A DNA stretch of 64,000 bases from Candidatus Latescibacterota bacterium. GTDB taxonomy: Bacteria > Latescibacterota > UBA2968 > GCA-2709665. Each line of letters begins with the position of its first letter. The stretch's first letter is position 1. Under the pieces are notes generated by a model. That model saw only the letters and a list, made by a program, of their open reading frames with translations, had not been told where the DNA came from and ran no database searches. The position numbers were made by a program, and so were the translations under genes. This document shows positions 225 through 58,689 of the stretch, one piece after another. The stretch spans positions 3,776,001 through 3,840,000 of the forward strand of contig OZ244744.1 in assembly GCA_965219455.1 (NCBI GenBank), given 5' to 3'.

Positions 225-3200
225 ATGCTTCCCAAACGGACTCTGTTGTTGATCACCGCGATCGTCGTCGTCGCCTTTGCAGGGCAGGCATTTGCCGGCG
301 CCAATGCAAATGCCGTTTTGTCGCTTGACCTGATTCCCGGTGCGGGCGCCGGCAACCGGACGGATGATGGGATAACGTCGGGGACGGTTTCTGGCCGGGG
401 CACAACCATCGCTGTTGAGGTTTTCGCGACAGGCGTGAGGACGTCTCTGGCCGGGATGATCATCAAATTTGACTTTGACCCTTCGTTACTGTCGTATGAA
501 AAGGCCGAAAACAGCGCGTTCGCCCTCACGCTTCCGGAAGGTTCCGTTGGCACCCATCTGGCGGCGCAGAGTCCCGTGGCATTGGCGTCTTCGGGGTTTC
601 TGGCGCGCGCGGAGTTTTCAACCGTTGCCGACGTTACGGGCCGGCAGTTTTCCATGGGCATCGAGTCGGTTACACTCGCCGAGAGTCCGACCTCGAGCGA
701 CGTACTCAGAACAAACAGTGAGATCACGTTCAATTCCGCGCCCTCCCCCGATTTCGACGGTGATGATTTTGTTGGATTCTCTGACTTTCTTGTTTTCGCG
801 AGCGCGTTCGGGTCGCGGCAAGGGGACGGGAGGTACAATGCCGCACAAGACCTGAATACCGATGGTTCCGTTGACTTTACCGACTTTCTGATTTTCGCGC
901 AGAGCTTTGGAGGTCCGCCGCCGTCAACGGGCGGCGGTGGCGGCGGTGGCGGCGGCAACCCGGATCTCGTTGTTCAGTCGCCTTCGGTAAGCAGCACACG
1001 CGTGGCTGCGGGTGGTCCCTTTGCACTGAGCGCGACGGTACGCAACCTGGGCAGTGCCGCGTCCGCCGCCACAACGTTACGCTACTACCGCTCGACGGAC
1101 GCGACGATTACCACGAGTGACACTCAGGTTGGTACGGATGCGGTGCGAGGGCTTGCGGCTGCCGCCGGAAGCGCCATGTCGTTTAGTTTGATCGCTCCGA
1201 CGGATTCCGGCACCCACTACTACGGGGCTTGCGTCGACGCAGTGGCAGGGGAAGCCAATTCCGGAAACAACTGTTCGGCTTCCGTCGCCGTAACCGTAAC
1301 GACGCAGCCTCCGCCGCCGGCGGGAGCGTCGAAGCTCTACTGGACGGACTGGGGCACGGACAAGATTCAACGCGCCAACCTGGACGGCTCCGGGGTCGAA
1401 GACCTGGTCTCGGGCGGCGGGCTGGACGGGCCTGACGGATTGGCGCTGGATATGGCGGGCGGCAAGTTGTACTGGACGGACGCGGGCGCCAACAAGATCC
1501 AGCGAGCCGATCTCAATGGCTCAAACGTCGAAGACCTGGTCACCGGCCTGGGAATCCCGTACGGCCTGGCCCTGGACGTATCCGGCGGCAAGATGTACTG
1601 GACGAGCCGGCAGACGAACAAGATCCAGCGTGCCGATCTCGGCGGCGCCAATGTTGAAGACCTCGTCACCAGCGGCCTGATGTTCCCGGGCGGACTGGCG
1701 CTGGACGTATCGGCCGGCAAGATGTACTGGACGAACCCGGGCGTGAACAAGATTCAGCGGTCCAACCTGGATGGCTCGAGTGTCGAAGATCTCGTGACCA
1801 GCGGCGTCAGCAGTCCCACCGGCCTTGCGCTGGACGTGTCCGGCGGCAAGATGTACTGGACGGACCGGCGCTCGGACAAGATCCAGCGGTCCAACCTGAA
1901 CGGTTCCGGAGTCGAAGACCTGGTCACCAGCGGCCTGCACAGCCCGAACGGACTGGCTCTGGACGTATCTGCCGCCAAGATGTACTGGGCCGACGCGGGT
2001 ACGAACAAGGTGCAGCGCGCCAACCTGGACGGCTCAAACGTGGAAGACCTGGTTACGGGAGCCAACGGCCTGGTCGATCCGTCGGGGGTGGCGGTGGGGG
2101 CGTCGGCAACAGGTGGAGGCGGTTCCGGCAGCGGCGGAGGTGGAAACGGCGGCGGCGCCTCCGCGGACCTGACTGTAGAAACGCCCTCGGTTAACAACAA
2201 CAGACCTGCCGCCGGGTCGTCGTTTACGCTGAGTGCGACGGTCCGCAACACGGGCAATGGCTCGTCCGCGGCATCGACGTTACGATACTACCGCTCTTCG
2301 AACGCGACGATTTCCTGGCGTGACACGGAGGTCGGCACCGACGCCGTTGGCAGACTTGCGGCTTCCGGCGCCAGCGCCGAGTCGATTGACCTGACGGCGC
2401 CATCGGGTACCGGGACCTACTACTACGGGGCCTGTGTGGACGCGGTGTCGGGTGAATCCGATACCGGAAACAACTGCTCCGCTGCGGTTACAGTAACGGT
2501 TGGCGCGGCCCCTGCCGCTGACCTGGTCGTCGTATCCCCTTCGGTTGACAACAACAGTCCTGCCGCCGGGTCGTCGTTTACTTTGAGTGCGACGGTCCGC
2601 AACAGGGGCAATGGCTCGTCCGCGGCATCGACGTTACGATACTACCGCTCTTCGAACGCGACGATATCTGCGAGTGACACTGAAGTCGGAACGGACGCGG
2701 TGAGCGGACTTGCGGCTTCCGGCGCCAGCGCCGAGTCGATCGGGCTGACGGCGCCATCGGGTGCCGGGACCTACTACTACGGGGCCTGTGTGGACGCAGT
2801 GTCGGGTGAATCCGATACCGGAAACAACTGCTCCGCTGCGGTTACGGTAACCGTTGGCGCGGCCCCTGCCGCTGACCTGGTCGTCGTATCCCCTTCGGTT
2901 GACAACAACAGTCCTGCCGCCGGGGCGTCGTTTACTTTGAGTGCGACGGTCCGCAACCAGGGCAATGGCTCGTCCGCGGCATCGACGTTACGATACTACC
3001 GCTCTTCGAACGCGACGATATCTGCGGGTGACACTGAAGTCGGAACGGACGCGGTGAGCGGACTTGCGGCTTCCGGCACCAGCGCCGAGTCGATCGGGCT
3101 GACGGCGCCATCGGGTACCGGGACCTACTACTACGGCGCCTGTGTGGACGCGGTCTCGGGTGAATCCGATACCGGAAACAACTGCTCCGCTGCGGTTACG

Positions 3201-4967
3201 GTAACCGTTGGCGCGGCCCCTGCCGCTGACCTGGTCGTCGTATCCCCTTCGGTTGACAACAACAGTCCTGCCGCCGGGTCGTCGTTTACTTTGAGTGCGA
3301 CGGTCCGCAACGGCGGCAATGGCCCGTCCGCGGCATCGACGTTACGATACTACCGCTCTTCGAACACGACGATATCTGCGGGTGACACTGAAGTGGGAAC
3401 GGACGCCGTTGGCGGGCTTGTGGCTTCCGGCGTCAGCGCCGAGTCGATTGGATTGACGGCTCCATCGGGTGCCGGGACCTACTACTACGGCGCCTGTGTG
3501 GACGCAGTGTCGGGTGAATCCGATACCGGAAACAACTGCTCCGCTGCGGTTACAGTAACCGTTGGCGCGGCCCCTGCCGCTGACCTGGTCGTTGTATCCC
3601 CTTCGGTTGACAACAACAGTCCTGCCGCCGGGGCGTCGTTTACGCTGAGTGCGACGGTCCGCAACCAGGGCAATGGCTCGTCCGCGGCATCGACGTTGCG
3701 CTATTACCGCTCTTCGGACGCGACGATATCTGCGGGTGACACCGCAGTCGGAACGGACGCCGTTGGCGGACTTGCGGCTTCCGGCGCCAGCGCCGAGTCG
3801 ATTGACCTGACGGCTCCATCGAATCCCGGAACCTACTATTACGGGGCCTGTGTGGATGCGGTGTCGGGCGAGTCGGACACAAGAAACAACTGCTCCTCCG
3901 CTGTGAGCGTCACAGTCGCGTCCCAGCCGCCGCCGCCCACGGTAGCCTCAAAGCTTTACTGGACGGACTGGGGTACCGACAAGATCCAGCGCGGCGATCT
4001 GGATGGCTCGAACGTCGAAGACCTGGTGAGCAGCGCGGGACTCGATGGACCCGACGGGTTGGCCCTGGATATGGCGGGCGGCAAGATGTACTGGACGGAC
4101 GCGGGTACGGCAAAGATCCAGCGGTCGGATCTGGACGGCTCCAACGTTGAAGACCTGGTTACCAGCGGACTGAGCGTACCGTACGGACTGGCCCTTGACG
4201 TGTCAGGCGACAAGATGTACTGGACAGATCGGCAGAACGGAAAGATCCAGCGCGCCGATCTGGATGGTTCCAATGTTGAAGACCTCCTCACCCTGGCCGG
4301 CCTGGCATTTCCAGGTGAAATCGCGCTGGACGTGTCCGGAGGCAAGATGTACTGGACGAACCCGGGGTCGGACAAGATCCAGCGCGCGGATCTGGACGGC
4401 TCCAACATTGAAGACCTGGTTACCACAGGTCTGAGCAGCCCCACGGGTCTGGCTCTGGACGTGGCAAATGACAAGATGTATTGGACGGACCGCGGTACAC
4501 ACAAGATTCAGCGCGCCGGTCTCGACGGTTCCAGCGTCGAAGACCTGGTCACCAGCGGCCTTACAACCCCCAACGGGTTGGACCTGGACGTGTCCGGTGG
4601 CAAGATGTACTGGACGGACGTCGACGCAAACAAGGTCCAGCGCGCGGATCTCAATGGATCCAACGTCGAAGACCTCCTCACCAGCGCCGACGGACTGGTC
4701 GATCCTTCGGGTCTCGCTGTAGGCGCCGTCAGCAACAGCAGCGGGGGAACCTATGGCGTTGGTGACGCACTCCCGAATTTCCCAACCGGCTTCTTTGTTC
4801 CACGGCTTCTTCGGAATGCAAACCTTACAATAAGCGGCGGGCGCGCGGTACTCAGCTTTCAGAATGGCGGCCTGATCGAGCTTCAGGATGGAACCCGTTA
4901 TACCTGTGTCGCCGCCGCCGGATGCAGCATCGAGGGCGGACGCGTCACCAGGGGCGCCTTTGAATAG
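225..4967 (+). CDS. Secreted scaffoldin-like protein: cohesin-like + dockerin-like (class B) + CARDB + YWTD propeller + 5x CARDB + YWTD propeller + small C-terminal domain
   Basis: ORF 132..4967; the likely start is ATG225, after AGGAG at 211-215, with signal peptide MLPKRTLLLITAIVVVAFAGQAFA. Shows cohesin-like pattern IAVEVFA-GV-xLxG-xKFxFDPSLL...GFLARAEF, EF-hand pair DFDGDDFVGFSDF...DLNTDGSVDFTDF, CARDB motif DLVVxSPSV...ATVRNxG...YYGACVD, and two sets of six YWTD repeats. Confidence 0.85.
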   Translation: MLPKRTLLLITAIVVVAFAGQAFAGANANAVLSLDLIPGAGAGNRTDDGITSGTVSGRGTTIAVEVFATGVRTSLAGMIIKFDFDPSLLSYEKAENSAFALTLPEGSVGTHLAAQSPVALASSGFLARAEFSTVADVTGRQFSMGIESVTLAESPTSSDVLRTNSEITFNSAPSPDFDGDDFVGFSDFLVFASAFGSRQGDGRYNAAQDLNTDGSVDFTDFLIFAQSFGGPPPSTGGGGGGGGGNPDLVVQSPSVSSTRVAAGGPFALSATVRNLGSAASAATTLRYYRSTDATITTSDTQVGTDAVRGLAAAAGSAMSFSLIAPTDSGTHYYGACVDAVAGEANSGNNCSASVAVTVTTQPPPPAGASKLYWTDWGTDKIQRANLDGSGVEDLVSGGGLDGPDGLALDMAGGKLYWTDAGANKIQRADLNGSNVEDLVTGLGIPYGLALDVSGGKMYWTSRQTNKIQRADLGGANVEDLVTSGLMFPGGLALDVSAGKMYWTNPGVNKIQRSNLDGSSVEDLVTSGVSSPTGLALDVSGGKMYWTDRRSDKIQRSNLNGSGVEDLVTSGLHSPNGLALDVSAAKMYWADAGTNKVQRANLDGSNVEDLVTGANGLVDPSGVAVGASATGGGGSGSGGGGNGGGASADLTVETPSVNNNRPAAGSSFTLSATVRNTGNGSSAASTLRYYRSSNATISWRDTEVGTDAVGRLAASGASAESIDLTAPSGTGTYYYGACVDAVSGESDTGNNCSAAVTVTVGAAPAADLVVVSPSVDNNSPAAGSSFTLSATVRNRGNGSSAASTLRYYRSSNATISASDTEVGTDAVSGLAASGASAESIGLTAPSGAGTYYYGACVDAVSGESDTGNNCSAAVTVTVGAAPAADLVVVSPSVDNNSPAAGASFTLSATVRNQGNGSSAASTLRYYRSSNATISAGDTEVGTDAVSGLAASGTSAESIGLTAPSGTGTYYYGACVDAVSGESDTGNNCSAAVTVTVGAAPAADLVVVSPSVDNNSPAAGSSFTLSATVRNGGNGPSAASTLRYYRSSNTTISAGDTEVGTDAVGGLVASGVSAESIGLTAPSGAGTYYYGACVDAVSGESDTGNNCSAAVTVTVGAAPAADLVVVSPSVDNNSPAAGASFTLSATVRNQGNGSSAASTLRYYRSSDATISAGDTAVGTDAVGGLAASGASAESIDLTAPSNPGTYYYGACVDAVSGESDTRNNCSSAVSVTVASQPPPPTVASKLYWTDWGTDKIQRGDLDGSNVEDLVSSAGLDGPDGLALDMAGGKMYWTDAGTAKIQRSDLDGSNVEDLVTSGLSVPYGLALDVSGDKMYWTDRQNGKIQRADLDGSNVEDLLTLAGLAFPGEIALDVSGGKMYWTNPGSDKIQRADLDGSNIEDLVTTGLSSPTGLALDVANDKMYWTDRGTHKIQRAGLDGSSVEDLVTSGLTTPNGLDLDVSGGKMYWTDVDANKVQRADLNGSNVEDLLTSADGLVDPSGLAVGAVSNSSGGTYGVGDALPNFPTGFFVPRLLRNANLTISGGRAVLSFQNGGLIELQDGTRYTCVAAAGCSIEGGRVTRGAFE
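2164..3920 (+). repeat. Five tandem 354-bp (118-aa) CARDB repeats
   Basis: Near-identical units; the period is confirmed by shadow ORFs at 2423/2777/3131/3485. Confidence 0.9.
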
Positions 4968-4980: not shown

Positions 4981-7900
4981 ATGAAATGGCCAATTACGAA
5001 TCGGCAATTCGTCTTGATGTCACTGGTTGTCGTCTTGATGGCATTTGCCATGCCGGGTTTGGGTTACGCCCAGGGAAACAGCCCGTCGGTGACGGCTTCG
5101 ACAGCGTCGCCGTTAACGGAAGGGTCGCTGGATGGCAGCGTGGTAACGCTGACGCTATCGGGCGGCGCCTACGCGAGTTCCATCTTCGACGTTCGGCGAG
5201 GTGTGTCGGTATCGGGCATTCCGGGCGTGAGCGTGGGTACGTTCGGGATAACCCGCGTTAACGATACGAAATTGACGATAGAACTGGACTTCAACGGTGA
5301 CTTCGACGAAGACGAGACGTTGACGTTCACGGTGGGCGCGGGGGCCATAGCGAACTACAGCGGCGCGGCCCTGACCGCGGAGTTGTCGGTCAGCGCGGCT
5401 ATAGAATCGGTGACTGCGTCAACAACCTCCCCGTTGACCGAGGCAACGCTTGACGGGAGCGTGGTGACGTTGACGCTGGCCGGACGCGCTTACGCGAGTT
5501 CCATCTTCGACGTTCGTGACGGGGTGTCGGTATCGGGCATTGCGGGCGTGAGCGTGGGTACGTTCGGCGTAACGCGCTTGAGCGACACCAAGGTGACGGT
5601 TGAACTCGACTTCAACGGAGATATCGACAGTGACGGAACGTTGACGTTTACCGTCGGCGCCGACGCGATCGCGGACTACAACGGCGCAGCCCTGACCGCG
5701 GAGTTGTCGGTCAGCGCGGGTATGGAATCGGTGACGGCGTCGACGACGTCGCCGTTGACGGAGTCGACGCTGCATGGCAGCGTGGTGACGCTGACGCTTT
5801 CTGGCGGCAGGTACGCGAGTTCCATCTTCGACGTCCGGGATGGGGTGTCGGTATCGGGCATTGCGGGCGTGAGCGTGGGTACGTTCGGCGTGCAGCGCGT
5901 GAGCGATACGAAGGTGACGGTTGAGCTCGACTTCAACGGCGATATCGACTCGAACGGTACGCTGACGTTCACGGTAGGCGCCGACGCGATCGCGAACTAC
6001 AGCGGCCCCGCGCTCACGGACCAACTGCCTGTCACGGCGAGCATGGAATCGGTGACGGCGACGACGGCGTCACCGTTGACGGAAGGGACGCTGAACGGGA
6101 GCGTGGTGACGTTGACGCTTTCTGGCGGCAGGTACGCAAGTTCCATCTTCGACGTCCGTGACGGGGTGTCGGTATCGGGCGTTGCGGGCGTGAGCGTGGG
6201 TACGTTCGGCGTAACGCGCTTGAGCGATACGAAGGTGAGGGTTGAACTGACGTTCAACGGCGATATCGACTCGAACGGCACGCTGACGTTCACGGTAGGC
6301 GCCGACGCGATCGCGAACTACAGCGGCCCCGCGCTCACGGACCAACTGCCTGTCACGGCGAGCATGGAATCGGTGACGGCGACGACGGTGTCACCGTTGA
6401 CGGAAGGGACGCTGAACGGGAGCGTGGTGACGTTGACGCTGTCGGGCGCCAGATACGCGAGTTCCATCTTCGACGTCCGTGACGGGGTGTCGGTATCGGG
6501 CGTTGCGGGCGTGAGCGTGGGTACGTTCGGCGTAACGCGCTTGAGCGATACGAAGGTGAGGGTTGAACTGACGTTCAACGGCGATATCGACTCGAACGGC
6601 ACGCTGACGTTCACGGTAGGCGCCGACGCGCTCGCGAACTACAGCGGCCCCGCGCTCACGGACCAACTGCCTGTCACGGCGAGCATGGAATCGGTGACGG
6701 CGACGACGGTGTCACCGTTGACGGAAGGGACGCTGAATGGGAGCGTGGTGACGTTGACGCTTTCTGGCGGCAGGTACGCGAGTTCCATCTTCGACGTCCG
6801 TGACGGGGTGTCGGTATCGGGCGTTGCGGGCGTGAGCGTGGGCACGTTCGGCGTGCGGCGCGTGAGCGATACGAAGGTGACGGTTGAACTGACGTTCAAC
6901 GGCGATATCGACTCGAACGGCACGCTGACGTTCACGGTAGGCGCCGACGCGCTCGCGAACTACAGCGGCCCCGCGCTCACGGACCAACTGCCTGTCACGG
7001 CGAGCATGGAATCGGTGACGGCGACGACGGTGTCACCGTTGACGGAAGGGACGCTGGACGGGAGCGTGGTGACGTTGACGCTGTCGGGCGCCAGATACGC
7101 GAGTTCCATCTTCGACGTCCGTGACGGGGTGTCGGTATCGGGCGTTGCGGGCGTGAGCGTGGGCACGTTCGGCGTGCAGCGCGTGAGCGATACGAAGGTG
7201 ACGGTTGAGCTCGACTTCAACGGCGATATCGACTCGAACGGTACGCTGACGTTTACGGTAGGCGCCGACGCGCTCGCGAACTACAGCGGCCCCGCGCTCA
7301 CGGACCAACTGCCTGTCACGGCGAGCATGGAATCGGTGACGGCGACGACGACGTCGCCGTTGACGGAAGGGACGCTGGACGGGAGCGTGGTGACGTTAAC
7401 GCTGTCGGGCGCCAAATACGCGAGGTCTACGTTCGACGTCCGTGACGGGGTGTCGGTATCGGGCGTTGCGGGCGTGAGCGTGGGCACGTTCGGCGTGCAG
7501 CGCGTGAGCGATACGAAGGTGACGGTTGAACTGACGTTCAACGGCGATATCGACTCGAACGGCACGCTGACGTTCACGGTAGGCGCCGACGCGCTCGCGA
7601 ACTACAGCGGCCCCGCGCTCACGGACCAGGTGTCTGTAACTGCGCTGGAGGAAACGGTTGTTGCGACAACGCCGCAGTCGTTGACGGAGGCAACGTTGAA
7701 CGGGAGCGTGGTGACGTTGACGCTTTCCGGTCGTTCGTACGCGAGTTCCATCTTCGACGTTCGGAGAGCCGTGACCGTCTCAGGAATCATGGGCGTAAGC
7801 GTGGGGACATTCGGGATCCAGCGCGCCAGCGACACAAAAGTGACGGTAACGCTCACGTACAACGGTGACATCGACGCGGACGGCACGTTGACGTTCACCG

Positions 7901-10900
7901 TGGGCGCTGGTGCGATCTCGAATTACAGCGGCGCCGCGCTGACGGCGCAGTTGCCGGTGAGCGCGGGGATGGAGTCGGTGACGGCGACGACGGTGTCACC
8001 GTTGACGGAAGCGACGTTGAACGGGAGCGTGGTGACGCTGACGTTGACTGGCGGTGCGTACGAGAGTTCCATTCACGTCGTGCGGCGCGGCGTGTCGGTA
8101 TCGGGTATAACGGGCGTGAGCGTTGGCACGTTCGGCATTCAACGCGTGAGCGACACGAAGGTAACGGTCGAGCTCACGTTCAACGGCGATATCGACGCGG
8201 ACGGTACGCTGACGTTCACCGTGGGCGCGGGGGCAATCGCGAGCTACAGCGGCGCCGCGCTGACGGCGCAGTTGCCGGTGAGCGCGGGGATGGAGTCGGT
8301 GACGGCGACGACGGTGTCACCGTTGACGGAAGCGACGTTGAACGGGAGCGTGGTGACATTGACGCTTTCTGGCGGTGCGTACGAGAGTTCCATTCACGTC
8401 GTGCGGCGAGGCGTGTCGGTATCGGGGATTACGGACGTGAGCGTGGAGTGGAACGGCGTGGACCGTATAAGCGATACGAAGGTAACGGTCGAACTGTCGT
8501 TTAGCGGCGATATCGACGCGGACGGTTCGCTGACGTTCACCGTGGGCGCGGGGGCAATCGCAAATTACAGCGGCCCCTCGTTGACCGACCACGTGTCTGT
8601 AACAGCGCTTGAGGAAACCGTTATTGCCACAGTGCCACAGTTATTGACGGAAGCGACGTTGAACGGGAGCGTGGTGACATTGACGCTTTCTGGATGCGCA
8701 TACGTGTCTTCCACTCACGACGTGCGTGACGGGGTGTCGGTATCGGGGATTGCGGGCGTGAGCGTTGGCGAGCAGAACGTGGACCGTATAAGCGATACGA
8801 AGGTAACGGTCGAGCTGTCGTTTAGCGGCAACATCGACAACGACGGCAGGTTGACGTTCACGGTGGGCGCCGGGGCGATCGCGAACTACAGCGGCGAACC
8901 ACTCGTTGCGTCATTGCCCGTGACCGCCGAGGCCGGCGGCGGAACCAATCAGGTACCCACGTTCAGTGCCGGCTCACACGCCACGCGCAGCTTCGCCGAA
9001 AACACGGGCGCTGGACAGAACATAGGCAGCCCGGTGGGTGCGACGGATAGCGACGGCGGAACACTGACCTACAGCCTTGAGGGCACGAACGCGGCGAGTT
9101 TCACGCTCGTTTCAACCAGCGGTCAGCTACAGACGAAAGCGGGCGTCACCTACGACTACGAGGTGAAGAACCGCTATGAGGTTACGGTGCGGGTGTCCGA
9201 CGGCCAGGGTGGCAGTACCACGATAGACGTGACCGTCAACCTGACCGACGTGAGCGAACCGCAGCCGAATCCGGAGCTCTATTGGACGGACTTGTCCGAA
9301 GACAGGATCCAGCGCGCCGATCTGGACGGCTCGAACGTCGAAGACCTGATCACCAGCGGTTTGGACGGCCCCGTCGGTCTGGCGCTGGACGTTGCCGCCG
9401 GCAAGATGTACTGGACGGAATGGGAAAGAAACAAGATTCGGCGCGCCAACCTGGACGGGTCCGGCGCCGAAGACCTCATCACCAGCGGGCGCGCCCCCGT
9501 CTGGCTGGCGCTGGACGTGCCCGGCGGCAAGATATACTGGACGGACTGGGGTAGGGACAGGATCCGGCGTGCGGACCTGGACGGTTCGAACGTCGAAGAC
9601 CTGGTTACGACGGGTCTGAACAGTCCGGCAGGCCTGGTTCTGGACGTGCCCGGCGGGAAAATGTACTGGACGGACTCGTCCGAGGACAAGATCCAGCGCG
9701 CCAACCTGGACGGTTCGAACGTTGAAGACCTGATTACCAGCGGTCTTGGCAGTCCCAGTGGGCTGGCGCTGGACGTGGCGAGCGGCAAGATGTACTGGAC
9801 GGATCGCGAAAGGGGCGAGATCCGGCGTGCGGACCTGAGTGGCGCCAATATCGAAGACGTTATCACACGTGGTCTGAACAAGCCCTACGAGGTGGACCTG
9901 GATCTGGCCGCGGGCAAGATGTACTGGACCGACCTCGACACCGACAAGATCCAGCGCGCCAACCTGGACGGCTCGAACGTCGAAGACCTCGTCACCCGCG
10001 CCGACGGACTGGAAGATCCATCCGGCCTGGCCCTGGCGGTTGCCGCCGCCCCCACGCCGCCGGCGCCGCAGGGACCGTGCGCAACCGGGAGCGCGGTGCC
10101 GAACCCGGCTGCCAACCCGTGGCTGGTATCCGACTGCAATGCCCTGCTCGATGCCCGGGATACCCTGGCAGGCACGGCGACGCTGAACTGGTCGGAAAAC
10201 ACACTTATATCCACCTGGGACGGCGTTACGCTCAGCGGGACGCCGCAACGCGTAACGAATTTGAGACTTTGGAACGAGAGCTTGAATGGAACGATACCGG
10301 CTGAGTTGAGCCGCCTGACCGGCCTGAAAGCGCTATACCTCGCGTTCAACCAGTTGACAGGGACCATACCGGCGGAGTTGGGCACGATGACCGGCCTGAC
10401 GCACCTGGGCCTGATGAATAACCGGTTGACCGGGCAAATCCCAGCAGAACTGCGAAACCTGACCGACCTGCGGCAGTTTGCCCTTCAGAACAACCAGTTG
10501 ACCGGTACGATCCCCGCGTGGTTGGGTAGCCTGCCCCAATTGCGCATACTGAACCTGCAGGGCAACCGGATGACCGGGCCGATTCCGGCGGAACTCGGTC
10601 GCCTGTCCGAATTGTGGCAGTTGCTCATCTTCGGTAATCAGTTGACCGGTACGATCCCGGCGGAACTTGGTAACCTGAATCTGCTGCAGGAAGTGCGCCT
10701 AGACGATAACCAGCTGACGGGGTCCATACCCTCATCGTTCAGCAGTCTGACAAAGTTGACATTATTGTACCTCGCCGGCAACACCCTGACAGGGTGCATC
10801 CCGGTGGTCCTGCGGGACGTCTCCAGCAACGACCTGGACAAGCTTAATTTGCCAGACTGTACCGGGTCGCAAGGACAGGTCACAGCCGACTTCAACGGCG

Positions 10901-11043
10901 ACGGCATCGTGAACTTCGCCGACTTCTTCGACTTCGTGGACGCATTCGGCACGACGGACGCCAAATTTGACCTCGACGGCAGCGGCACGGTGGACTTCGC
11001 CGATTTCTTCGACTTCGTGGATGCATTCGGGACGTCGGGATAG
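4981..11043 (+). CDS. Large secreted adhesin-like protein: 12x 107-aa Ig-like repeats + cadherin + YWTD propeller + plant-type LRR + C-terminal dockerin-like (class A)
   Basis: Signal peptide ending GYAQ; cadherin motif (NQVPTF...AENT...VGATDSDG...YDYE...VRVSDG); six YWTD; LRRs GxIPAELGxLxxLxxLxLxxNxL; terminal DFNGDGIVNFADF...DLDGSGTVDFADF. Confidence 0.88.
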   Translation: MKWPITNRQFVLMSLVVVLMAFAMPGLGYAQGNSPSVTASTASPLTEGSLDGSVVTLTLSGGAYASSIFDVRRGVSVSGIPGVSVGTFGITRVNDTKLTIELDFNGDFDEDETLTFTVGAGAIANYSGAALTAELSVSAAIESVTASTTSPLTEATLDGSVVTLTLAGRAYASSIFDVRDGVSVSGIAGVSVGTFGVTRLSDTKVTVELDFNGDIDSDGTLTFTVGADAIADYNGAALTAELSVSAGMESVTASTTSPLTESTLHGSVVTLTLSGGRYASSIFDVRDGVSVSGIAGVSVGTFGVQRVSDTKVTVELDFNGDIDSNGTLTFTVGADAIANYSGPALTDQLPVTASMESVTATTASPLTEGTLNGSVVTLTLSGGRYASSIFDVRDGVSVSGVAGVSVGTFGVTRLSDTKVRVELTFNGDIDSNGTLTFTVGADAIANYSGPALTDQLPVTASMESVTATTVSPLTEGTLNGSVVTLTLSGARYASSIFDVRDGVSVSGVAGVSVGTFGVTRLSDTKVRVELTFNGDIDSNGTLTFTVGADALANYSGPALTDQLPVTASMESVTATTVSPLTEGTLNGSVVTLTLSGGRYASSIFDVRDGVSVSGVAGVSVGTFGVRRVSDTKVTVELTFNGDIDSNGTLTFTVGADALANYSGPALTDQLPVTASMESVTATTVSPLTEGTLDGSVVTLTLSGARYASSIFDVRDGVSVSGVAGVSVGTFGVQRVSDTKVTVELDFNGDIDSNGTLTFTVGADALANYSGPALTDQLPVTASMESVTATTTSPLTEGTLDGSVVTLTLSGAKYARSTFDVRDGVSVSGVAGVSVGTFGVQRVSDTKVTVELTFNGDIDSNGTLTFTVGADALANYSGPALTDQVSVTALEETVVATTPQSLTEATLNGSVVTLTLSGRSYASSIFDVRRAVTVSGIMGVSVGTFGIQRASDTKVTVTLTYNGDIDADGTLTFTVGAGAISNYSGAALTAQLPVSAGMESVTATTVSPLTEATLNGSVVTLTLTGGAYESSIHVVRRGVSVSGITGVSVGTFGIQRVSDTKVTVELTFNGDIDADGTLTFTVGAGAIASYSGAALTAQLPVSAGMESVTATTVSPLTEATLNGSVVTLTLSGGAYESSIHVVRRGVSVSGITDVSVEWNGVDRISDTKVTVELSFSGDIDADGSLTFTVGAGAIANYSGPSLTDHVSVTALEETVIATVPQLLTEATLNGSVVTLTLSGCAYVSSTHDVRDGVSVSGIAGVSVGEQNVDRISDTKVTVELSFSGNIDNDGRLTFTVGAGAIANYSGEPLVASLPVTAEAGGGTNQVPTFSAGSHATRSFAENTGAGQNIGSPVGATDSDGGTLTYSLEGTNAASFTLVSTSGQLQTKAGVTYDYEVKNRYEVTVRVSDGQGGSTTIDVTVNLTDVSEPQPNPELYWTDLSEDRIQRADLDGSNVEDLITSGLDGPVGLALDVAAGKMYWTEWERNKIRRANLDGSGAEDLITSGRAPVWLALDVPGGKIYWTDWGRDRIRRADLDGSNVEDLVTTGLNSPAGLVLDVPGGKMYWTDSSEDKIQRANLDGSNVEDLITSGLGSPSGLALDVASGKMYWTDRERGEIRRADLSGANIEDVITRGLNKPYEVDLDLAAGKMYWTDLDTDKIQRANLDGSNVEDLVTRADGLEDPSGLALAVAAAPTPPAPQGPCATGSAVPNPAANPWLVSDCNALLDARDTLAGTATLNWSENTLISTWDGVTLSGTPQRVTNLRLWNESLNGTIPAELSRLTGLKALYLAFNQLTGTIPAELGTMTGLTHLGLMNNRLTGQIPAELRNLTDLRQFALQNNQLTGTIPAWLGSLPQLRILNLQGNRMTGPIPAELGRLSELWQLLIFGNQLTGTIPAELGNLNLLQEVRLDDNQLTGSIPSSFSSLTKLTLLYLAGNTLTGCIPVVLRDVSSNDLDKLNLPDCTGSQGQVTADFNGDGIVNFADFFDFVDAFGTTDAKFDLDGSGTVDFADFFDFVDAFGTSG
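5086..8930 (+). repeat. Twelve tandem 321-bp (107-aa) repeats
   Basis: Unit ESVTATTxSPLTEGTLNGSVVTLTLSGG...NYSGPALT; the period is confirmed by shadow ORFs at 5676/5997/6318/6639/6960/7281/7602. Confidence 0.92.
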
Positions 11044-11962: not shown

Positions 11963-12024
11963 AACGTACAAACCCTGTATCGAAGCGTCGGTTGTGAAAC
12001 CGCCCAAACAATGGAGGTCACAGG

Positions 12025-14956: not shown

Positions 14957-14978
14957 CCGCGGGGAATGTCGATTTTTC

Positions 14979-15156
14979 CAGCTTTATCAGTCCGTTGAAG
15001 AAGTCGCTCTGCAGGCGAGGCCGAGTCATTGTGGCCGAAGACAAGGCGCGCGACCGCGTCGAATCGGGGGATTCGGGGAGGGAGTGCAACGCAGTAATTC
15101 GGCCACAAGGGCCGGACGCAGCCCGGATGGACTTTTTCAACGGGCTGTTAAGGCTG
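14979..15156. mobile_element. MITE-like element with ~27-bp imperfect terminal inverted repeats
   Basis: cagctttatcagtccgttgaagaagtc (14979-15005) versus gactttttcaacgggctgttaaggctg (15130-15156); internal perfect IR ttgtggccgaa/ttcggccacaa and hairpin cgaatc-gggg-gattcg. Confidence 0.75.
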
Positions 15157-46483: not shown

Positions 46484-49400
46484 ATGAAAACTCCTGCTCC
46501 TGAGCTCGCAATGTTCGTGTTGGTCGGCCTGCTTATCTCACCGCCGGCTCTGGTTCATGCTTCGTCTTCGTCGCCTGACAGCGTGCATTTCTGCGTGCCG
46601 TTCGATTACGAACAGTGGCGGCGCGATCACCCCCAGCCGGCCGGCAAGCGGCTGGCGGTTCTGAACGTGGGCGAACCGCGCACTGTGCGAATGATCTACT
46701 TCCTTCCGAATGACCGACCCTTCCGGCAGGAGGTGGTCGATTCGATGAAAGTTGTGATTCGCAGGGTTCAGACCTTTTATGCCGCGCAGATGGAGGTGCA
46801 CGGCTATGGTAGAAAAACCTTCCGCCTTGAAAGCGATACCCGGGACGAACCGATAGTCCACCTAGTGGATGGAAGTCATCCCGAGAGTCACTATTACAAC
46901 ACATTTGGTGGTGCTATGGTTGACGAGCTTTGGCAGGTGTTTGATTTTAACGTGAATATTTACTCCATAATCATCGACACTCATCATGCATCATTTCAGG
47001 GCCGTGGAGGTGGTGGCGGGCGGGATGGAAAAATCGGTGGATCTGCGTGGCTAACCAGCGGATATATTGGGGCCGGGGCACATGGCGGGTATGCGGGTAC
47101 AACGGCCCATGAAATTGGGCACGCCTTCGGCTTGGAACACGACTTCCGCGATGGTACGTACACCATGTCGTATGGCCAAGGAGGTCGGTTATCCGCGTGC
47201 GCTGCTGAATTTCTGGCCGTGCATCCCTACTTCAATCCGAATACCTCAATTGAAGAAGGGCGGCCGCCCACCATCGAGTTCATTTCTCCTCTAGGATATC
47301 CAGCCGGCTCAGAGAGCATCTCCGTCCAACTCAAAGTCAGCGATCCGTCGGGGATTCATCAGGTGATTCTATTTGTTGCATCATCACTTGGCGGCGCAAT
47401 CGAACTTAGGGCGTGTCGTGGCGTGCTAGCCAAAAAAGATGCCGTCGTCCAATTTGAGTATGACGGCGTGATTCCATCGGAAATAGGTACAAGCCTTTCC
47501 AACCCGATATCACATCCGATCATTGTCGAAGCCGTTGACACAGATGGGAATGTACACCAGCAGCCTTTCGGCCTCGCCGAAATGTCTCCATACCTAATCG
47601 CCACGCTGGAGGGACATACGGATCGGGTCCGTTCCGTGGCGTTTTCGTCCGACGGCACACTCGCCTCCGGTTCGTGGGATGGCACGGCCAAACTGTGGAA
47701 CACAGAGACACGAAAACAGATCACGACGTTTCCTCACGATGCCAGAGTCGTTTCAGTGGCATTTTCACCGGAAGGGAATATCCTCGCTGCCGTTTCATGG
47801 AGTACTGATTTGTGGGACGTTGTGACAGAGCGACGGATCGCCACTCTCCGAGGAGAGGGACAACCCTACTCAGCGGCATTTTCACCTGACGGTACGCTCG
47901 CTTTAGGCTTGTGGAATGGTGCGGTCGAGCTGTGGAATGTGGCGACCCGAGAACAGATCGCCACTCTGGAAGGGCATTCGAGTTGGGTGCGTTCGGTTGC
48001 GTTTTCGCAGGATGGGACGCTGCTGGCTTCCGGGTCTCATGATGGGCGACTGTTGCTGTGGGATGTGGGGACTAAGTATCAAATCGCCACACTGGAAGGT
48101 CATACAGGAGGGGTCGGTTCGGTGGCTTTCTCAAGGGATGGGTCATTGCTTGTTTCCGGCTCCGGGGATCGCACGGTTCGGCTGTGGGACGTGGCAACAA
48201 GACAGAACACCGCCACTATTGAAGAGCATACGTACAGCGTGGAGGCTGTTTCGTTTTCACCGGACGGGACGCTCGTTTCGGGTGACGCTCGTGGAGTGAT
48301 AATGTTGTGGAACGCGGCGACCCAAGAGCGGATTGCCCGTTTCGCGCACAGGGGTGGCGTCCAGTCGGTGGCGTTTGCCCCCGACGGCGGAATCCTTGCT
48401 TCCGGCTCGGGGGATGGCACGATCGCACTGTGGGATATGTCTGCGCGGACACGGCCTCGTCCTTCGGCGCTGGAGATATTCTCGGGCGACGGCCAGCAGG
48501 GCGCGCCTGGAACGCCGCTTGCCCAGCCCATGGTCGTGGAAGTGCGGGACCAGTACGGCGATCCCCTGCCCGATGCAGCCGTCACCTTTACCATCACGGC
48601 CGGTGATGGCAAGCTCAGCGGCCGTTTCACGGTGCAGCACGCGACCACCGATGCCAACGGCCGGGCGGAGCTGAACCTTACCCTGGGCCTCCCGGGCCCG
48701 AACACCGTGGGGGTGTCCCTCGGCGGCCGCGAACTGGCGACGTTTACAGCCGAGGGCGTGGGCACGGCGGTGGCGGAGCTGGAGGGAGACTACCGGACCT
48801 GGCATCTGCCCAGGGCGGCGACGGTGCGCCTGGGAAAGGGCGCCATGGGCGAAGGCGACCGGGCCCTCGCACTTTCGCCGGACGGCCGCTGCCTGGCCGT
48901 GTCCAGCGGCATCGGCGTGTGGTTGTACGAGGCAGCCACATCCCGCGCCCTGGCGCTCCTGCCGAGTGAGAATCCGGTCCATTCAGTGGCTTTCTCCCTC
49001 GACGGCACCCTCGCTTCGGGCTTGGACAACGGCCAGGTCGCGCTATGGGAAGTGGAGACGGGGGAGCGAATCGCCACGCTGAGGCATGCGGATCGGGGCA
49101 GGATCACCTCGGTCGTATTTTCGGCGGATGGAACTGGCCTGGCGTCCGGTTCGTGGGACCAGGTCATCAAGCTGTGGGATGTAGAGACCAGGCGCGAGGT
49201 GGGCACCTGGGAGGTGCCGTGGGAGTTTAACGCTCTTTTGCCCATTTCTGTGGCCTTTTCGCCGGATGGGTCGACGCTGGCTTCGGGGTTTCAGGACCGC
49301 ACGGTCCGGCTGTGGGACGTCGAGACCCAGACGGAGGTGGCCACGCTGAAAGGGCACACGGACCGGGTCATTTCGGTGTCGTTCTCGCCGGATGGTGGGC

Positions 49401-51088
49401 TCCTGGCTTCGGCCGGGGACTGGGATGATCGCACGGTCCGGCTGTGGGACGTGGCCACACAAGCACAGGTCGCCACGCTGAGAGGGCATACCAGGGAGGT
49501 CTATTCGGTAGCGTTTTCTCCGGCCGACGGCGCCACCCTGGCTTCGGGGTCGTGGGACCACACGGTCCGGCTGTGGGACGTGGCCACACACGAGGAGCTG
49601 GCCACGTTTGAAGAGCATATGGGTCCGGTCACTTCGGTGACGTTCTCGCGCGATGGGGGCACCCTCGTCTCGGGCGCCGCGGACGGCACGGTGCTGCTGC
49701 GGGACGTGGAGACGGGCAATGCCGACGGTCTGTCCGGTCACGGGTCTTTGACCACGATGGCGTTGTCGCCCGATGGCACGCTCCTGGCTTCCGGGTCTCA
49801 GGATGGCACGGTCCGGCTGTGGGACGCGGCCACAAGAGCACGAAATACCACTCTTGAAGGACATAGGACCAGGGTCGGTTCCGTGTCGTTTTCTTTTGAC
49901 GGCGCCGTCCTGGCCTCCGGGTCATTGAATCAAACGGTCAAGCTGTGGGACGTTGGGAAACGAGAACTGATCGCCAGCCTGGAGGGGCACACGGGTCCGG
50001 TCACTTCGGTTTCGTTTTCGCCCGATGGCGCCCTGCTAGCTTCGGCAGGGGGGTGGAATGATGCCACGGTCTGGCTGTGGGACGTGGGGACTCGCGAGCC
50101 GATCGGCACCCTCGAAGGGCATACGAATGATGTCCGCTCGGTGGCGTTTTCTCCCGACGGCGCTCTCCTGGCCTCGGCAGGGGGCTATGAAGACAAGACG
50201 GTCAAGCTCTGGAACGTCGCCACGCGAGAACTCATCGCTTCGCTGGAAGATCACACGGGTTCAGTGAATTCGGTGGTGTTTTCGCCCGATGGGAAGACCC
50301 TCGCTTCCGGGTCGTCAGATGGAACGGTGCGGCTGTCGGACGCAGCGACAAGAACCCCCATCTCCTCTCTGGACAATCGGAGTTCCGTGTATTCGTTGGC
50401 ATTCTCGTCTGACGGCGCCGTCCTGGCCTCCGGGTCATGGGATCGAACGGTCAAGCTGTGGGACGTGGAGACACGAGAACAGATAGGCGCCCTGCAAGGA
50501 GGGCACACGGGTTCGGTCCATTCAGTGGCGTTTTTTCGTGATGGCGCCACCCTGGTCTCCGGGGCATCGGACGGCACGATGCTGCTGTGGGATTTGCAGC
50601 GTCTGGAATCCCGACCCCATTCCCTGAGGCCGGTCTCCGGCCTGGAGCATCAAGGGCCGGCCGGCGGCGATTTAGCCGACCCCTTTGTCGTCTTGGTGCT
50701 GGATCAGAACGGGGAACCTGTCGCGGGTGCACAGGTCACGTTTGCCGTCACCGCTGGCGGGGGAACGCTGTCCGTAGAGACTGCCACCACGGATGAGAAC
50801 GGCCGCGCTGCCACGACCCTGACGCTTGGAAGCCAACCCGGTACGAACACCGTCGTCGCATCGGTAAAGGACCTCGAGCCGGTGACCTTCACCGCCACCG
50901 CCAGGGCCGCATCCGACTTCGATGGCGACGGGACCGTCGGTTTCGCCGACTTCGTGCGGTTTGCGGCGCAGTTTGGGTTGAGTCAGGGTGACGAGGGTTA
51001 CGACGCGCGTTACGATCTTGACGAAAACGGCGCCATCGGGTTCAGCGATTTTCTGATCTTTGCCCAAGCCTTTGGAAGAGAAGGGTGA
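46484..51088 (+). CDS. Secreted metzincin + WD40 + Big_1 + double WD40 + Big_1 + dockerin-like (class B)
   Basis: ATG46484 gives a signal peptide ending VHA; HEIGHAFGLEH plus TMSY; WD40 blocks; two Big_1 domains; DFDGDGTVGFADF...DLDENGAIGFSDF. Confidence 0.87.
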   Translation: MKTPAPELAMFVLVGLLISPPALVHASSSSPDSVHFCVPFDYEQWRRDHPQPAGKRLAVLNVGEPRTVRMIYFLPNDRPFRQEVVDSMKVVIRRVQTFYAAQMEVHGYGRKTFRLESDTRDEPIVHLVDGSHPESHYYNTFGGAMVDELWQVFDFNVNIYSIIIDTHHASFQGRGGGGGRDGKIGGSAWLTSGYIGAGAHGGYAGTTAHEIGHAFGLEHDFRDGTYTMSYGQGGRLSACAAEFLAVHPYFNPNTSIEEGRPPTIEFISPLGYPAGSESISVQLKVSDPSGIHQVILFVASSLGGAIELRACRGVLAKKDAVVQFEYDGVIPSEIGTSLSNPISHPIIVEAVDTDGNVHQQPFGLAEMSPYLIATLEGHTDRVRSVAFSSDGTLASGSWDGTAKLWNTETRKQITTFPHDARVVSVAFSPEGNILAAVSWSTDLWDVVTERRIATLRGEGQPYSAAFSPDGTLALGLWNGAVELWNVATREQIATLEGHSSWVRSVAFSQDGTLLASGSHDGRLLLWDVGTKYQIATLEGHTGGVGSVAFSRDGSLLVSGSGDRTVRLWDVATRQNTATIEEHTYSVEAVSFSPDGTLVSGDARGVIMLWNAATQERIARFAHRGGVQSVAFAPDGGILASGSGDGTIALWDMSARTRPRPSALEIFSGDGQQGAPGTPLAQPMVVEVRDQYGDPLPDAAVTFTITAGDGKLSGRFTVQHATTDANGRAELNLTLGLPGPNTVGVSLGGRELATFTAEGVGTAVAELEGDYRTWHLPRAATVRLGKGAMGEGDRALALSPDGRCLAVSSGIGVWLYEAATSRALALLPSENPVHSVAFSLDGTLASGLDNGQVALWEVETGERIATLRHADRGRITSVVFSADGTGLASGSWDQVIKLWDVETRREVGTWEVPWEFNALLPISVAFSPDGSTLASGFQDRTVRLWDVETQTEVATLKGHTDRVISVSFSPDGGLLASAGDWDDRTVRLWDVATQAQVATLRGHTREVYSVAFSPADGATLASGSWDHTVRLWDVATHEELATFEEHMGPVTSVTFSRDGGTLVSGAADGTVLLRDVETGNADGLSGHGSLTTMALSPDGTLLASGSQDGTVRLWDAATRARNTTLEGHRTRVGSVSFSFDGAVLASGSLNQTVKLWDVGKRELIASLEGHTGPVTSVSFSPDGALLASAGGWNDATVWLWDVGTREPIGTLEGHTNDVRSVAFSPDGALLASAGGYEDKTVKLWNVATRELIASLEDHTGSVNSVVFSPDGKTLASGSSDGTVRLSDAATRTPISSLDNRSSVYSLAFSSDGAVLASGSWDRTVKLWDVETREQIGALQGGHTGSVHSVAFFRDGATLVSGASDGTMLLWDLQRLESRPHSLRPVSGLEHQGPAGGDLADPFVVLVLDQNGEPVAGAQVTFAVTAGGGTLSVETATTDENGRAATTLTLGSQPGTNTVVASVKDLEPVTFTATARAASDFDGDGTVGFADFVRFAAQFGLSQGDEGYDARYDLDENGAIGFSDFLIFAQAFGREG

Positions 51089-53929: not shown

Positions 53930-57040
<3,111 letters not shown>

Positions 57041-57096: not shown

Positions 57097-58689
57097 TCAC
57101 GGCGTCTTTCCGAAATTCCGCGCGAACACAATGAAGTCCCCGAAAGAGACGATCCGGTCGGCATCAAGGTCGAAGGAGGGGTCGAAGCCGGGTTGGCCCG
57201 CAGATTTGCCAAAGCCCGCGGCAAATGCGATGAAATCCGGAAAATCGACCGTACCGCTGGCGTCGAAGTCCGCGGCTCCCGGAGTTCGTCCTTCGCGCGC
57301 GGTGAGAGAGAGGGTGTAGGTCTGAGGGCCGGCGGACGTGCGTGTGACGGCCAATACTTTTGGCGTGCCGCCGTAGAGACCGATGCGGCGGCGGGCGGTG
57401 TGAGGGACGGGTACGGCGGCGACGTCGAGTGTGCCGTCCCGTTCGGACACCAGTGTCACCAGCAGGTCGCTGTCGCTTCTGACATCGAGCGAGAGGCCCG
57501 CGAAACCCGACGTTCGAGGCACGAAATAGTCGATGCCCCAGAGCTGGAGGGCGCCGCCGAGGTCGTCGGCCGGAACCGCTACGGTATCTCTTCTGACCGG
57601 TCTGAGGGTGAGACCCCGGTATCCGGGTTCGCCCTCGTCGTTCACGAACACGGCCGCCGCCCAGTTGGCCCAGAATTGCTCGAAGCGCTCGCCCGCGTCG
57701 AGCGATTCCAGGGCAAGGTTGAACCCTTCAATACTGTTTGCCGGTTCGGCGACCAGTCGGGTGACGGCCGAATTGCCGTAGCGCTGGGCGAAGTAGGTCA
57801 TCAGCAGAAAGGTCTGGTCGAAGAGGAAAGGCAGGTAGCCGCCTTTGGACCAGCTGTCGGCATCCGTCAGGCCGGTATTGGGTGGTACAGAGACGGCGGA
57901 GTCCGACGATTTGAGCAGGTTGGGAACACGGAGGAAGTTCCGCGCGGCCGCGCCGGTCGTGTCCTTGTAACCGCAGGCCAGTTCGGCGTATTCTGAACAG
58001 CCCTCGTCCACCCATCTGTGTTCGTCGGGATCGGCGTTCCAGTGCAGCATGTGCTGGAACTCGTGGGCAAGGGTGGCCCGCGCCAGGTCGCTGTCGAGGT
58101 CCAGGGGATTGCTGTCGATGTAGAGGATTTCCCTGCCGACCGGCGCCGCCTGGTTCGCGGTATCGTAATACCCCACGAACGTGCCGCCCAGACTGCTGTC
58201 CATAATATCCAGTATAACGATCAGGACCCGTGGATCGCCGTCCGCGTCGGGCGGGGGGCCGAAGATCTCGGTATCGATGGAGAAAATGCCGCGTTCGCGA
58301 TACCGGGGGGTGGACCGGTCGAAGGCCAGGGCGAGGGTTGCGACAGCGGCGGGATTCACGCGGGGTCCGTTCCAGATATCGTCCTCCACGAAGATATAGC
58401 AGTGTTCGCCCTTAAAACGGCACGTGGTTGTGGTCAGATAGAACGGATCGGAACCCGCAACCGCGCCGAAATTATACGCACGAACGGTCAGGGGGTCGCC
58501 GACGTCAAACGTCTCGGCGGCCGTTTTTTTTGCCGCGGCGCCGGGATGTGGACGCACGGACAGGTAGGGAGTACCGCAGCGGGCGTCCGGGTCGGCGAAC
58601 ACGGCGGAATTGAGCAGCAGGCAGAACACCATCCCTGCTGAGGCAGGAAGCCAGGCGCAAGCCGCCGGATTAGAGACGGTCGAAGTCAA
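57097..58689 (-). CDS. Secreted M30 (hyicolysin)-like zinc peptidase + dockerin-like (class B)
   Basis: Signal peptide; CGTP; FGPPPDADGDPRVLIVILDI...GYY...TLAHEFQHMLH...WVDEGCSEYA; DFDASGTVDFPDF...DLDADRIVSFGDF. Confidence 0.82.
   Translation of the reverse strand: MTSTVSNPAACAWLPASAGMVFCLLLNSAVFADPDARCGTPYLSVRPHPGAAAKKTAAETFDVGDPLTVRAYNFGAVAGSDPFYLTTTTCRFKGEHCYIFVEDDIWNGPRVNPAAVATLALAFDRSTPRYRERGIFSIDTEIFGPPPDADGDPRVLIVILDIMDSSLGGTFVGYYDTANQAAPVGREILYIDSNPLDLDSDLARATLAHEFQHMLHWNADPDEHRWVDEGCSEYAELACGYKDTTGAAARNFLRVPNLLKSSDSAVSVPPNTGLTDADSWSKGGYLPFLFDQTFLLMTYFAQRYGNSAVTRLVAEPANSIEGFNLALESLDAGERFEQFWANWAAAVFVNDEGEPGYRGLTLRPVRRDTVAVPADDLGGALQLWGIDYFVPRTSGFAGLSLDVRSDSDLLVTLVSERDGTLDVAAVPVPHTARRRIGLYGGTPKVLAVTRTSAGPQTYTLSLTAREGRTPGAADFDASGTVDFPDFIAFAAGFGKSAGQPGFDPSFDLDADRIVSFGDFIVFARNFGKTP

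Follow-up and report, generated by a model that had tools for sequence, protein, structure and literature searches.

A cohesin-dockerin gene island associated with type IX secretion in a Latescibacterota genome carries a discrete and conserved dockerin subtype

Introduction

To our knowledge, what is understood of cohesin-dockerin assembly comes almost exclusively from Gram-positive cellulosomes. In the clostridial cellulosome (e.g., CipA and SdbA of Acetivibrio thermocellus), type I dockerins load enzymes on the scaffoldin, and a type II dockerin anchors the scaffoldin itself; non-cellulosomal cohesin and dockerin modules have also reportedly been described, by Peer et al. in 2009. In this work, we analyzed a stretch of 64,000 nucleotides from the genome of a Candidatus Latescibacterota bacterium (assembly GCA_965219455.1, contig OZ244744.1, positions 3,776,001 to 3,840,000 of the forward strand; hereafter, the window), which encodes an array of large secreted proteins carrying dockerin-like modules of two kinds, termed class A (short linker) and class B (long linker), some of them adjacent to cohesin-like domains.

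According to the available text of PMC8542988, a cellulosome-like system with a scaffoldin bearing a C-terminal sorting domain (CTD) was inferred for a metagenome-assembled genome of Cloacimonadota. The available part of PMC7081726 refers to Farag et al. 2017 when it mentions 'cellulosome-affiliated enzymes' in Latescibacteria, a study that may bear on the novelty of the present findings; our literature searches on dockerins and cohesins in Latescibacteria, sponge symbionts and Poribacteria found no description of dockerin subtypes in the phylum.

An initial annotation of the window had proposed that the two classes constitute a hierarchy, in which class A would load onto scaffolds and class B would anchor or polymerise them, or else that they reflect two separate expansion waves. 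By extending the analysis to the complete source genome (G000, a single contig of 5.84 Mb) and to a sample of 31 genomes of the order, we found that class A represents a single discrete subtype of dockerin, conserved and without exception C-terminal, class B being the mixed default type of the genome, and that the window corresponds to most of an accessory island of ~60 kb.

Results

Class A is a discrete dockerin subtype

A regular-expression scan of 17 large open reading frames (ORFs), combined with alignment, recovered exactly the set of 13 modules initially listed, seven with the short linker of class A and six with the long linker of class B (Table 1). The features ascribed to class A were reproduced: its loop-to-loop spacing is 27, the DFF signature is found in both helices, and the module, with the consensus 'DFNGDGxTDFVDFFLFADA[YF]GGTDxxFDLDGNGxVDFADFFxFVDAFG[STA]', constitutes the final 51-53 residues of all seven window carriers. 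For class B, the longer linker stood (spacing 33, i.e., six residues longer, of the 'GxSQGDxGYDARY' type); its loops are not uniform, the modules of genes 225-4967 and 57097-58689 deviating from the GFxDF pattern. Class B modules are C-terminal in four window proteins and internal in two, where they directly follow cohesin-like domains, in agreement with the statement that both cohesin-bearing proteins use this class. The positions along the array were also as described: class A modules lie between 10.9 and 41.3 kb, and those of class B that are C-terminal appear from 39.5 kb onward. The start of the second class A gene, previously placed at 15327, was revised, the most likely start being 14232, where a lipoprotein-like signal is present.

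The 13 window modules are of the dockerin type, each with two copies of a Ca loop followed by a helix. Their alignment displays Asp or Asn at Ca-loop positions 1, 3, 5 and 12 in both repeats and both classes, with no exception among the 13. When a profile of these modules was compared with PDB sequences, the best match was the Cel48 dockerin of Pseudobacteroides cellulosolvens (2y3n_B, E 2.4e-11), covering 56 of 59 columns with the long linker included, which upholds the initial dockerin assignment; the next matches were mostly calmodulin EF-hands, plus two scaffoldin X-dockerins at ~1e-5. An AlphaFold2 model of the cohesin-dockerin cassette predicted dockerin helices at residues 161-170 and 194-203, with a mean predicted local distance difference test score (pLDDT) of 80-93 per ten-residue block over residues 151-210, the whole-model mean being only 68.2. 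The isolated modules of genes 225 and 37484 scored 26.9 and 21.1 bits, respectively, with Pfam Dockerin_1 (PF00404, cut-off 22.9), and the same family gave 53 matches genome-wide, 36 of them above cut-off and none of these 36 corresponding to class A. In the alignment, the classes differ mainly at positions 3, 8, 9, 14 and 18 and in the linker; both have Phe10, followed at position 11 by Val/Ala in class A and by Gly/Ser/Pro in long-linker modules.

A hidden Markov model (HMM) of the 13 modules detected 106 dockerin-like modules in the genome, 84 with long and 22 with short linkers. Eight of them belong to class A, namely the seven of the window and one at 690036-692279, and all are C-terminal; they share 73-98% identity with each other and at most 67% with any other module, and form a clade with a support of 0.963 in a tree calculated without linker columns. 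The other 14 short-linker modules carry FxDF[LIV] loops with no DFF signature and are equally close to long-linker modules and to each other, and the six class B modules of the window scatter over at least four places in the tree. Outside the linker, silhouette values were 0.19 for short versus long linkers, 0.69 for class A members and 0.14 for the remainder. The initial annotation had expected two clades, and regarded a genome-wide continuum as evidence to the contrary; the genome-wide phylogeny returned half of each, one discrete clade (class A) within a continuum, so that the distinction holds in the window and the division of the genome into two clades does not.

A two-cluster split was also tried by average-linkage clustering and rejected, given that no value of k from 2 to 12 yielded the two classes; class A emerged as a near-pure cluster (9 members) just at k >= 10. 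Elsewhere in the genome (4388577-4415050, minus strand), 12 genes encode C-terminal long-linker dockerins of two alternating subtypes, with zero cohesin genes within 25 kb; the second helix of one subtype reads 'DWW(I/T)F' where the other has 'DF(L/V)IF', and these subtypes may constitute another specificity group.

Class A is old and conserved

Class-A-grade modules (best E <= 1e-26) were found in 15 of the 31 genomes, including another genus (G016) and another family (G026 and G027). In a tree, 17 class A modules from four genomes, three genera and two families were monophyletic with a support of 0.989, in a test that is partly circular, as class A had been picked by motif beforehand. At the codon level, the comparison of six window modules (15 pairs, excluding that of gene 4981) revealed nucleotide identities of 78-85%, and only 47-69% of the identical residues were encoded by identical codons (31-53% differ); recent gene conversion as the origin of class A uniformity is ruled out by these codon differences. 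Further, similarity ends at the module boundary in 19 of the 21 class A pairs, and the carriers are otherwise unrelated proteins according to their Pfam domains. Because the subtype is conserved across families, its codons have diverged and its cargo is unrelated, we conclude that class A is old and selected and not the product of a recent wave, which weakens the earlier alternative of two expansion waves.

Paralogous cargo occurs with either class, as illustrated by the metzincin-like proteins encoded by gene 32510 (class A) and by genes 46484 and 43690 (class B). These share a secreted N-domain with a metzincin-like HExxHxxGxxH motif (window 32510-33709, 43690-44889 and 46484-47683), which in genes 46484 and 43690 is 45% and 32% identical, respectively, to that of gene 32510, and whose Pfam matches are just weak (Reprolysin or 'Metallopep').

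Cohesin families, anchors and adaptors

According to structural modelling, the three N-terminal domains of the two cohesin-bearing window proteins are cohesin folds missed by Pfam. They are 64-74% identical to one another, and the same range applies to their comparison with four paralogues encoded at 686-712 kb in this genome. The AlphaFold2 model of a window cohesin is a 9-strand beta sandwich (pLDDT 86.8), for which a Foldseek search of the PDB placed cohesin modules at all ranks from 1 to 10 (E 1.4e-5 to 5.2e-5), with query-normalised template modelling (TM) scores of 0.48-0.59 in the top ten and up to 0.62 lower in the ranking; 79 matches had E <= 0.001, and the Clostridium perfringens cohesins 2vo8 and 2jh2 were among the fold matches. 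A strict HMM of the window cohesins identified only 6 ORFs in the genome, and a broader one, built from database relatives, 20 cohesin domains in 19 ORFs; the latter ties the window family transitively to ORFs that pass Pfam Cohesin (PF00963), e.g., 5321855-5322193 (37.8 bits). Hereafter, the window-type cohesins of the adaptors described below are referred to as A1 cohesins, and the small cohesin proteins with a type IX secretion system (T9SS) CTD as the anchor family.

A predicted anchor is encoded directly upstream of the window, by a gene that ends at window base 31; the product combines a signal peptide with a single cohesin and a T9SS type A CTD. The anchor proteins scored 33.9 (island anchor) and 38.1 bits with TIGR04183 (cut-off 23), and one paralogue (5268556-5269398) reaches 32.1 bits with Pfam Cohesin, above the cut-off; searches of the PDB with the anchor-family profile gave just FlgD-like matches, to its CTD part. 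The family comprises 11 ORFs in the genome, in which the T9SS translocon SprA was also detected (631 bits, cut-off 200), and is present in 31 of the 31 genomes. An ORF of 1953 residues that resembles the T9SS sortase PorU and carries CARDB and FlgD-Ig domains and its own CTD directly flanks the island 7.4 kb upstream of the window (3762745-3768603, partly L065:15-2606; L065 and L071 are locus coordinate sets, and L065 belongs to the source genome). Two tandem response-regulator/AraC-type genes (L065:4333-5070 and 5247-5945, genome 3770333-3771945), which are candidate island regulators, lie in the interval from this PorU-like gene to the island's first dockerin gene.

Both window cohesin proteins are adaptors, in which the cohesin portion is directly followed by a long-linker dockerin, with ~six residues ('NSAPSP') between the last cohesin strand and the first Ca loop of the cassette. 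This arrangement extends beyond the window: genome-wide, all 20 dockerins that share a protein with a cohesin, either A1-related or anchor-type, are long-linker. In at least 85 of 150 relatives of the A1 cohesin found in databases, one or more cohesins are directly followed by a dockerin-like module, and a class-A-grade module is present in none of the 150. At 689-709 kb, 5318-5327 kb and 5656-5661 kb, anchor paralogues adjoin cohesin-dockerin genes, and the same neighbourhood is seen in the G016, G026 and G027 loci. Across relatives, at least 30 of 93 anchor matches have an A1 cohesin within 2.5 kb, a lower bound in which A1 coordinates are left out for 9 of the 12 genomes of family f2.

Other cohesin proteins were observed as well. 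The genome encodes a 1623-residue protein with two Pfam cohesins and a CTD (5403187-5408055, plus strand), and two giant paralogues that end with a dockerin, a cohesin and a T9SS CTD (2382235-2387229 and 2389512-2394221, minus strand); these represent further anchoring scaffold types in the same genome. In G027, an ORF of 180 residues (L071:2136-2675, minus strand) consists of the first two thirds of an anchor-type cohesin fused to a class A dockerin that replaces the T9SS CTD, and may be a recombinant or decayed gene.

Linkage and island polymorphism

In the source genome, an A1 cohesin gene is found within 25 kb of each of the eight class A genes, of 5 of 45 C-terminal long-linker genes and of none of the other 14 short-linker genes. 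Considering this and 14 related genomes, 69 of 73 class-A-grade matches have an A1 cohesin on the same contig, and all 69 lie within 25 kb of it (55 within 10 kb), the remaining four being on contigs with no cohesin match. The loci of G016, G026 and G027 each contain an anchor, an adaptor with the same 'SPDFDGD' dockerin start, and class A cargo, the trio of G016 being located at a different genomic place. The occurrence of these components is nested, with the anchor cohesin in 31 of 31 genomes, the A1 cohesin in 27, and class A in 15, all within the A1 set; the four genomes that lack the A1 cohesin (G001, G015, G017 and G018) all lack class A. Such linkage supports a functional unit and cannot assign partners, because all three gene kinds share one island.

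The distance from the PorU-like gene to enolase is 62 kb here and ~50 kb in G013; in the congeners G001 and G009, both without class A, it is ~2.7 and 2.6 kb, respectively. Because the same flanks are found at either distance, we conclude that the cohesin-dockerin island is a presence/absence polymorphism of the genus, its entire content being gained or lost together.

Contents of the window

The window has a G+C content of ~60%, and its large secreted proteins form a same-strand array from base 132 to ~51.1 kb (Table 1), in which Pfam recognized WD40, LRR, YWTD (LDL-receptor class B), CARDB, cadherin-like, GLUG, fn3 and Big_1 domains; adaptor 2 also carries CARDB and YWTD domains and a weak leishmanolysin-like match. 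No glycoside hydrolase or carbohydrate-binding module (CBM) family was present among the Pfam matches listed for 16 window proteins. As judged from the matches listed, the island cargo consists of WD40, LRR, YWTD, cadherin-like and metzincin-like proteins, and carbohydrate enzymes are not among them.

Table 1. Coordinates of the dockerin- and cohesin-bearing genes in the window.
Feature	Window position	Strand	Remarks
Anchor gene, 3' end	1..31	+	Genome 3775198-3776031 = L065:9198-10031; 277 aa; cohesin L065:9285-9782
Adaptor 1	225..4967 (alternative start 132)	+	Signal peptide; cohesin 297-743; long-linker dockerin 744-920; six CARDB; YWTD/LDL-receptor-B propellers
Class A cargo	4981..11043	+	Dockerin 10882-11040; ten 107-aa repeats, cadherin, YWTD, LRR
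Class A cargo	14232..18353	+	Dockerin 18198-18350; WD40, LRR
Class A cargo	18462..23633	+	Dockerin 23478-23630; GLUG, cadherin-like
Class A cargo	23658..25037	+	Dockerin 24882-25034; fn3
Class A cargo	26641..28968	+	Dockerin 28813-28965; WD40, fn3
Adaptor 2	29280..32432 (alternative start 29109)	+	Signal peptide; cohesins 29352-29798 and 29808-30248; long-linker dockerin 30252-30428
Class A cargo	32510..37039	+	Dockerin 36884-37036; metzincin-like N-domain (HELGHAFGLHH), WD40, LRR
Long-linker cargo	37484..39715	+	C-terminal dockerin 39536-39712; WD40
Class A cargo	39729..41336	+	Dockerin 41181-41333; Big_1
Long-linker cargo	43690..46335	+	C-terminal dockerin 46147-46323; metzincin-like N-domain, LRR, Big_1
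Long-linker cargo	46484..51088 (alternative start 46397)	+	C-terminal dockerin 50909-51085; metzincin-like N-domain, WD40
Separate gene outside the island	57097..58689	-	Divergent long-linker dockerin-like module 57100-57276; no Pfam family

The ~ten tandem repeats of gene 4981-11043 stand N-terminal to its cadherin, YWTD and LRR domains, and each contains the motif 'NGDIDS(N/D)GTLTFTVGA', starting at residues 214, 321, and so on to 1177. A dip in G+C content is found at window 12001-16000 (0.536 versus ~0.60-0.63 in its neighbours), around the intergenic stretch and the 5' portion of gene 14232. Beyond the array, the interval at 51.7-57 kb contains ordinary genes, namely those for an outer-membrane barrel, a TPR protein, enolase (54993-56309) and a CxxCxxCC protein. 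Near the right edge, a Por_Secre_tail match (63754-63966, minus strand; 30.6 bits, above cut-off) ends a frame of 1047 residues that continues past the window.

Discussion

We propose that the island encodes a non-cellulolytic cohesin-dockerin surface display tied to type IX secretion, and assign a probability of about 0.5 to this reading, including the following wiring. The T9SS would export the anchor cohesin and fix it on the outer surface; the adaptors would plug into it via their long-linker dockerin; class A cargo would plug into the A1 cohesins of the adaptors, constituting a second, orthogonal docking channel; and many other long-linker cargo proteins would dock to anchor-type or other cohesins, docking being Ca-dependent throughout. 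Module identities, architecture, conservation and linkage speak directly for this display, in which surface attachment and every binding assignment are predictions. The hierarchy initially suggested is architecturally plausible, with a T9SS-CTD anchor cohesin, cohesin-dockerin adaptors and dockerin-only cargo. Because the cargo comprises eukaryote-like repeat proteins and metzincin-like proteases, the system likely serves to adhere to the surfaces of hosts or particles, or to process them, and not to break down polysaccharides. In its fullest form, the proposal would be a T9SS-anchored display of three tiers at the surface of a diderm, with two or more orthogonal pairs (class A with the A1 cohesin, and long-linker dockerins with the CTD-anchored cohesin). 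The second channel, located on a gain-or-loss island, would array metzincin proteases and eukaryote-like repeat proteins as a modular 'adhesome' that makes contact with hosts or particles; this complete version is tentative, and we give it clearly less than an even chance.

Several observations weigh against the proposed display. Pfam searches at E values up to 10 gave zero matches in all three window cohesin domains, comparison of these domains with PDB sequences found nothing, and hhalign of the A1 versus the anchor cohesin family returned a probability of 0.2, i.e., no detectable similarity. Class A, represented by gene 4981, scores 15.3 bits with Pfam Dockerin_1, below the cut-off of 22.9, and intermediate scores (~83 bits in G007 and 82 in G028) blur the class A threshold. 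According to the available text of PMC8063739, positions 10-11 are the canonical specificity determinants of dockerins, and at these recognition positions Phe10 is common to both classes, which speaks against a strong specificity code. Twelve genomes have an A1-type cohesin with no class-A-grade module, so that A1 cohesins must have, or also have, another ligand there. The linkage counts, obtained from related genomes that are non-independent samples, fit 'A binds A1 cohesin' and 'A binds anchor cohesin' alike. On the side of secretion, the PorU-like ORF scores 213 + 72 bits with NF033707, under the equivalog cut-off of 420, and none of the 13 window dockerin proteins has a T9SS CTD, and the proposed display does not account for the passage of such CTD-less proteins across the outer membrane. 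Co-folding of an A1 cohesin with a class A module (score 0.02, mark 0.32, without controls) is evidence neither way.

Among other explanations, class A and long-linker modules could bind the same cohesins, class A being a well-conserved lineage spread by domain shuffling within the island. The shared Phe10 and Ca-loop residues agree with such a single specificity, positions 10-11 being established determinants in the available text of PMC8063739, as do the continuum formed by the modules outside class A and the 14 other short-linker modules, in which linker length is uncoupled from the loop signature. However, class-specific residues have been retained from one family to another in spite of numerous synonymous changes, cargo paralogues carry different classes, and class A never appears as the cohesin-adjacent dockerin (0/20 here and 0/150 among database relatives), so that we regard a single specificity as unlikely. 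A reversed wiring, in which class A cargo docks directly on the T9SS-anchored cohesin and the long-linker dockerins of adaptors bind the A1 cohesins of other adaptors in head-to-tail chains, fits the linkage equally well, as anchor, adaptor and class A genes are co-located and an anchor cohesin is found no more than 25 kb from 5 of the 8 class A genes; in addition, the short gap between cohesin and dockerin in the cassette (~six residues) favours binding in trans. Against it stand the presence of anchor cohesins in 31 of 31 genomes, including 16 with no class-A-grade modules, and the absence of class A from all four genomes without an A1 cohesin, and we consider reversal distinctly improbable.

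The modules might also not be cohesin ligands at all. They could instead act as pairs of Ca-binding EF-hands, either helping secreted proteins to fold or to remain stable, or recognising some other partner, for instance a host or glycan ligand. Such a role would suit the profile matches in the PDB, which after one dockerin are mostly calmodulins, the roughly threefold excess of 106 modules over ~33 cohesin domains, and the location of most C-terminal long-linker genes far from any cohesin gene (median 244 kb); it is at odds with the full-length match to a solved dockerin, linker included, with the conserved cohesin-dockerin cassette, and with the recurrence of the anchor-adaptor-cargo trio in other genera and families, and is in our judgement very improbable.

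New in this work are the discrete and conserved dockerin subtype, its tie to a cohesin family missed by profiles, the adaptor rule, the non-enzymatic cargo, and the island polymorphism, for none of which our literature searches returned an earlier account. A single genome brings together 106 dockerin-like modules on non-enzymatic, eukaryote-like repeat proteins with T9SS anchors, an adaptor tier and a second subtype. If class A were one half of an orthogonal pair, this would reveal a way in which the many surface proteins of a diderm bacterium are distributed among distinct docking channels, and would provide new Ca-dependent plug-socket pairs for protein engineering. The results also imply that annotation pipelines under-count cohesins in Latescibacterota.

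As in the clostridial cellulosome, the system includes duplicated Ca-loop dockerins, cohesin beta-sandwiches, adaptors with both module kinds, and distinct dockerin types, which are predicted here to serve different tiers. The differences concern content and attachment: no carbohydrate-active enzyme or CBM is present among the Pfam matches listed for the 16 window proteins, so that neither the dockerin-borne enzymes nor the CBM-bearing multi-cohesin scaffoldin that define a cellulosome are found there; each window protein has at most two cohesins; the predicted anchoring is by a T9SS CTD in a diderm and not by S-layer homology (SLH) domains or sortase; and the cohesin lies directly before the dockerin, with no X-module seen here.

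The system described for Cloacimonadota, as far as the available text of PMC8542988 covers it, shares the T9SS-CTD cohesin anchor, the secreted proteins with C-terminal dockerins, and a host that belongs to a diderm candidate phylum. Its scaffoldin bears many cohesins and CBMs and its cargo comprises hydrolases and peptidases, whereas the anchors found here are single-cohesin proteins of 270-310 residues and the cargo consists of repeat proteins; the adaptor tier and the discrete second dockerin subtype likewise set the island apart from what that text describes. Regarding the Cel48 dockerin of P. cellulosolvens in complex with the ScaA cohesin (PDB 2y3n; available text of PMC8063739), its linker length is that of the long-linker class, and its two repeats are near-symmetrical, in keeping with a dual binding mode; at positions 10-11 it has Met-Ala, where the modules studied here have Phe plus a small or hydrophobic residue, and the class A linker is six residues shorter. 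Finally, the system resembles non-cellulosomal cohesin and dockerin modules in their use outside polysaccharide degradation and in that both kinds can share one protein, and departs from them in its larger scale, with 106 modules in one genome, in its T9SS anchoring, and in its conserved subtype structure.

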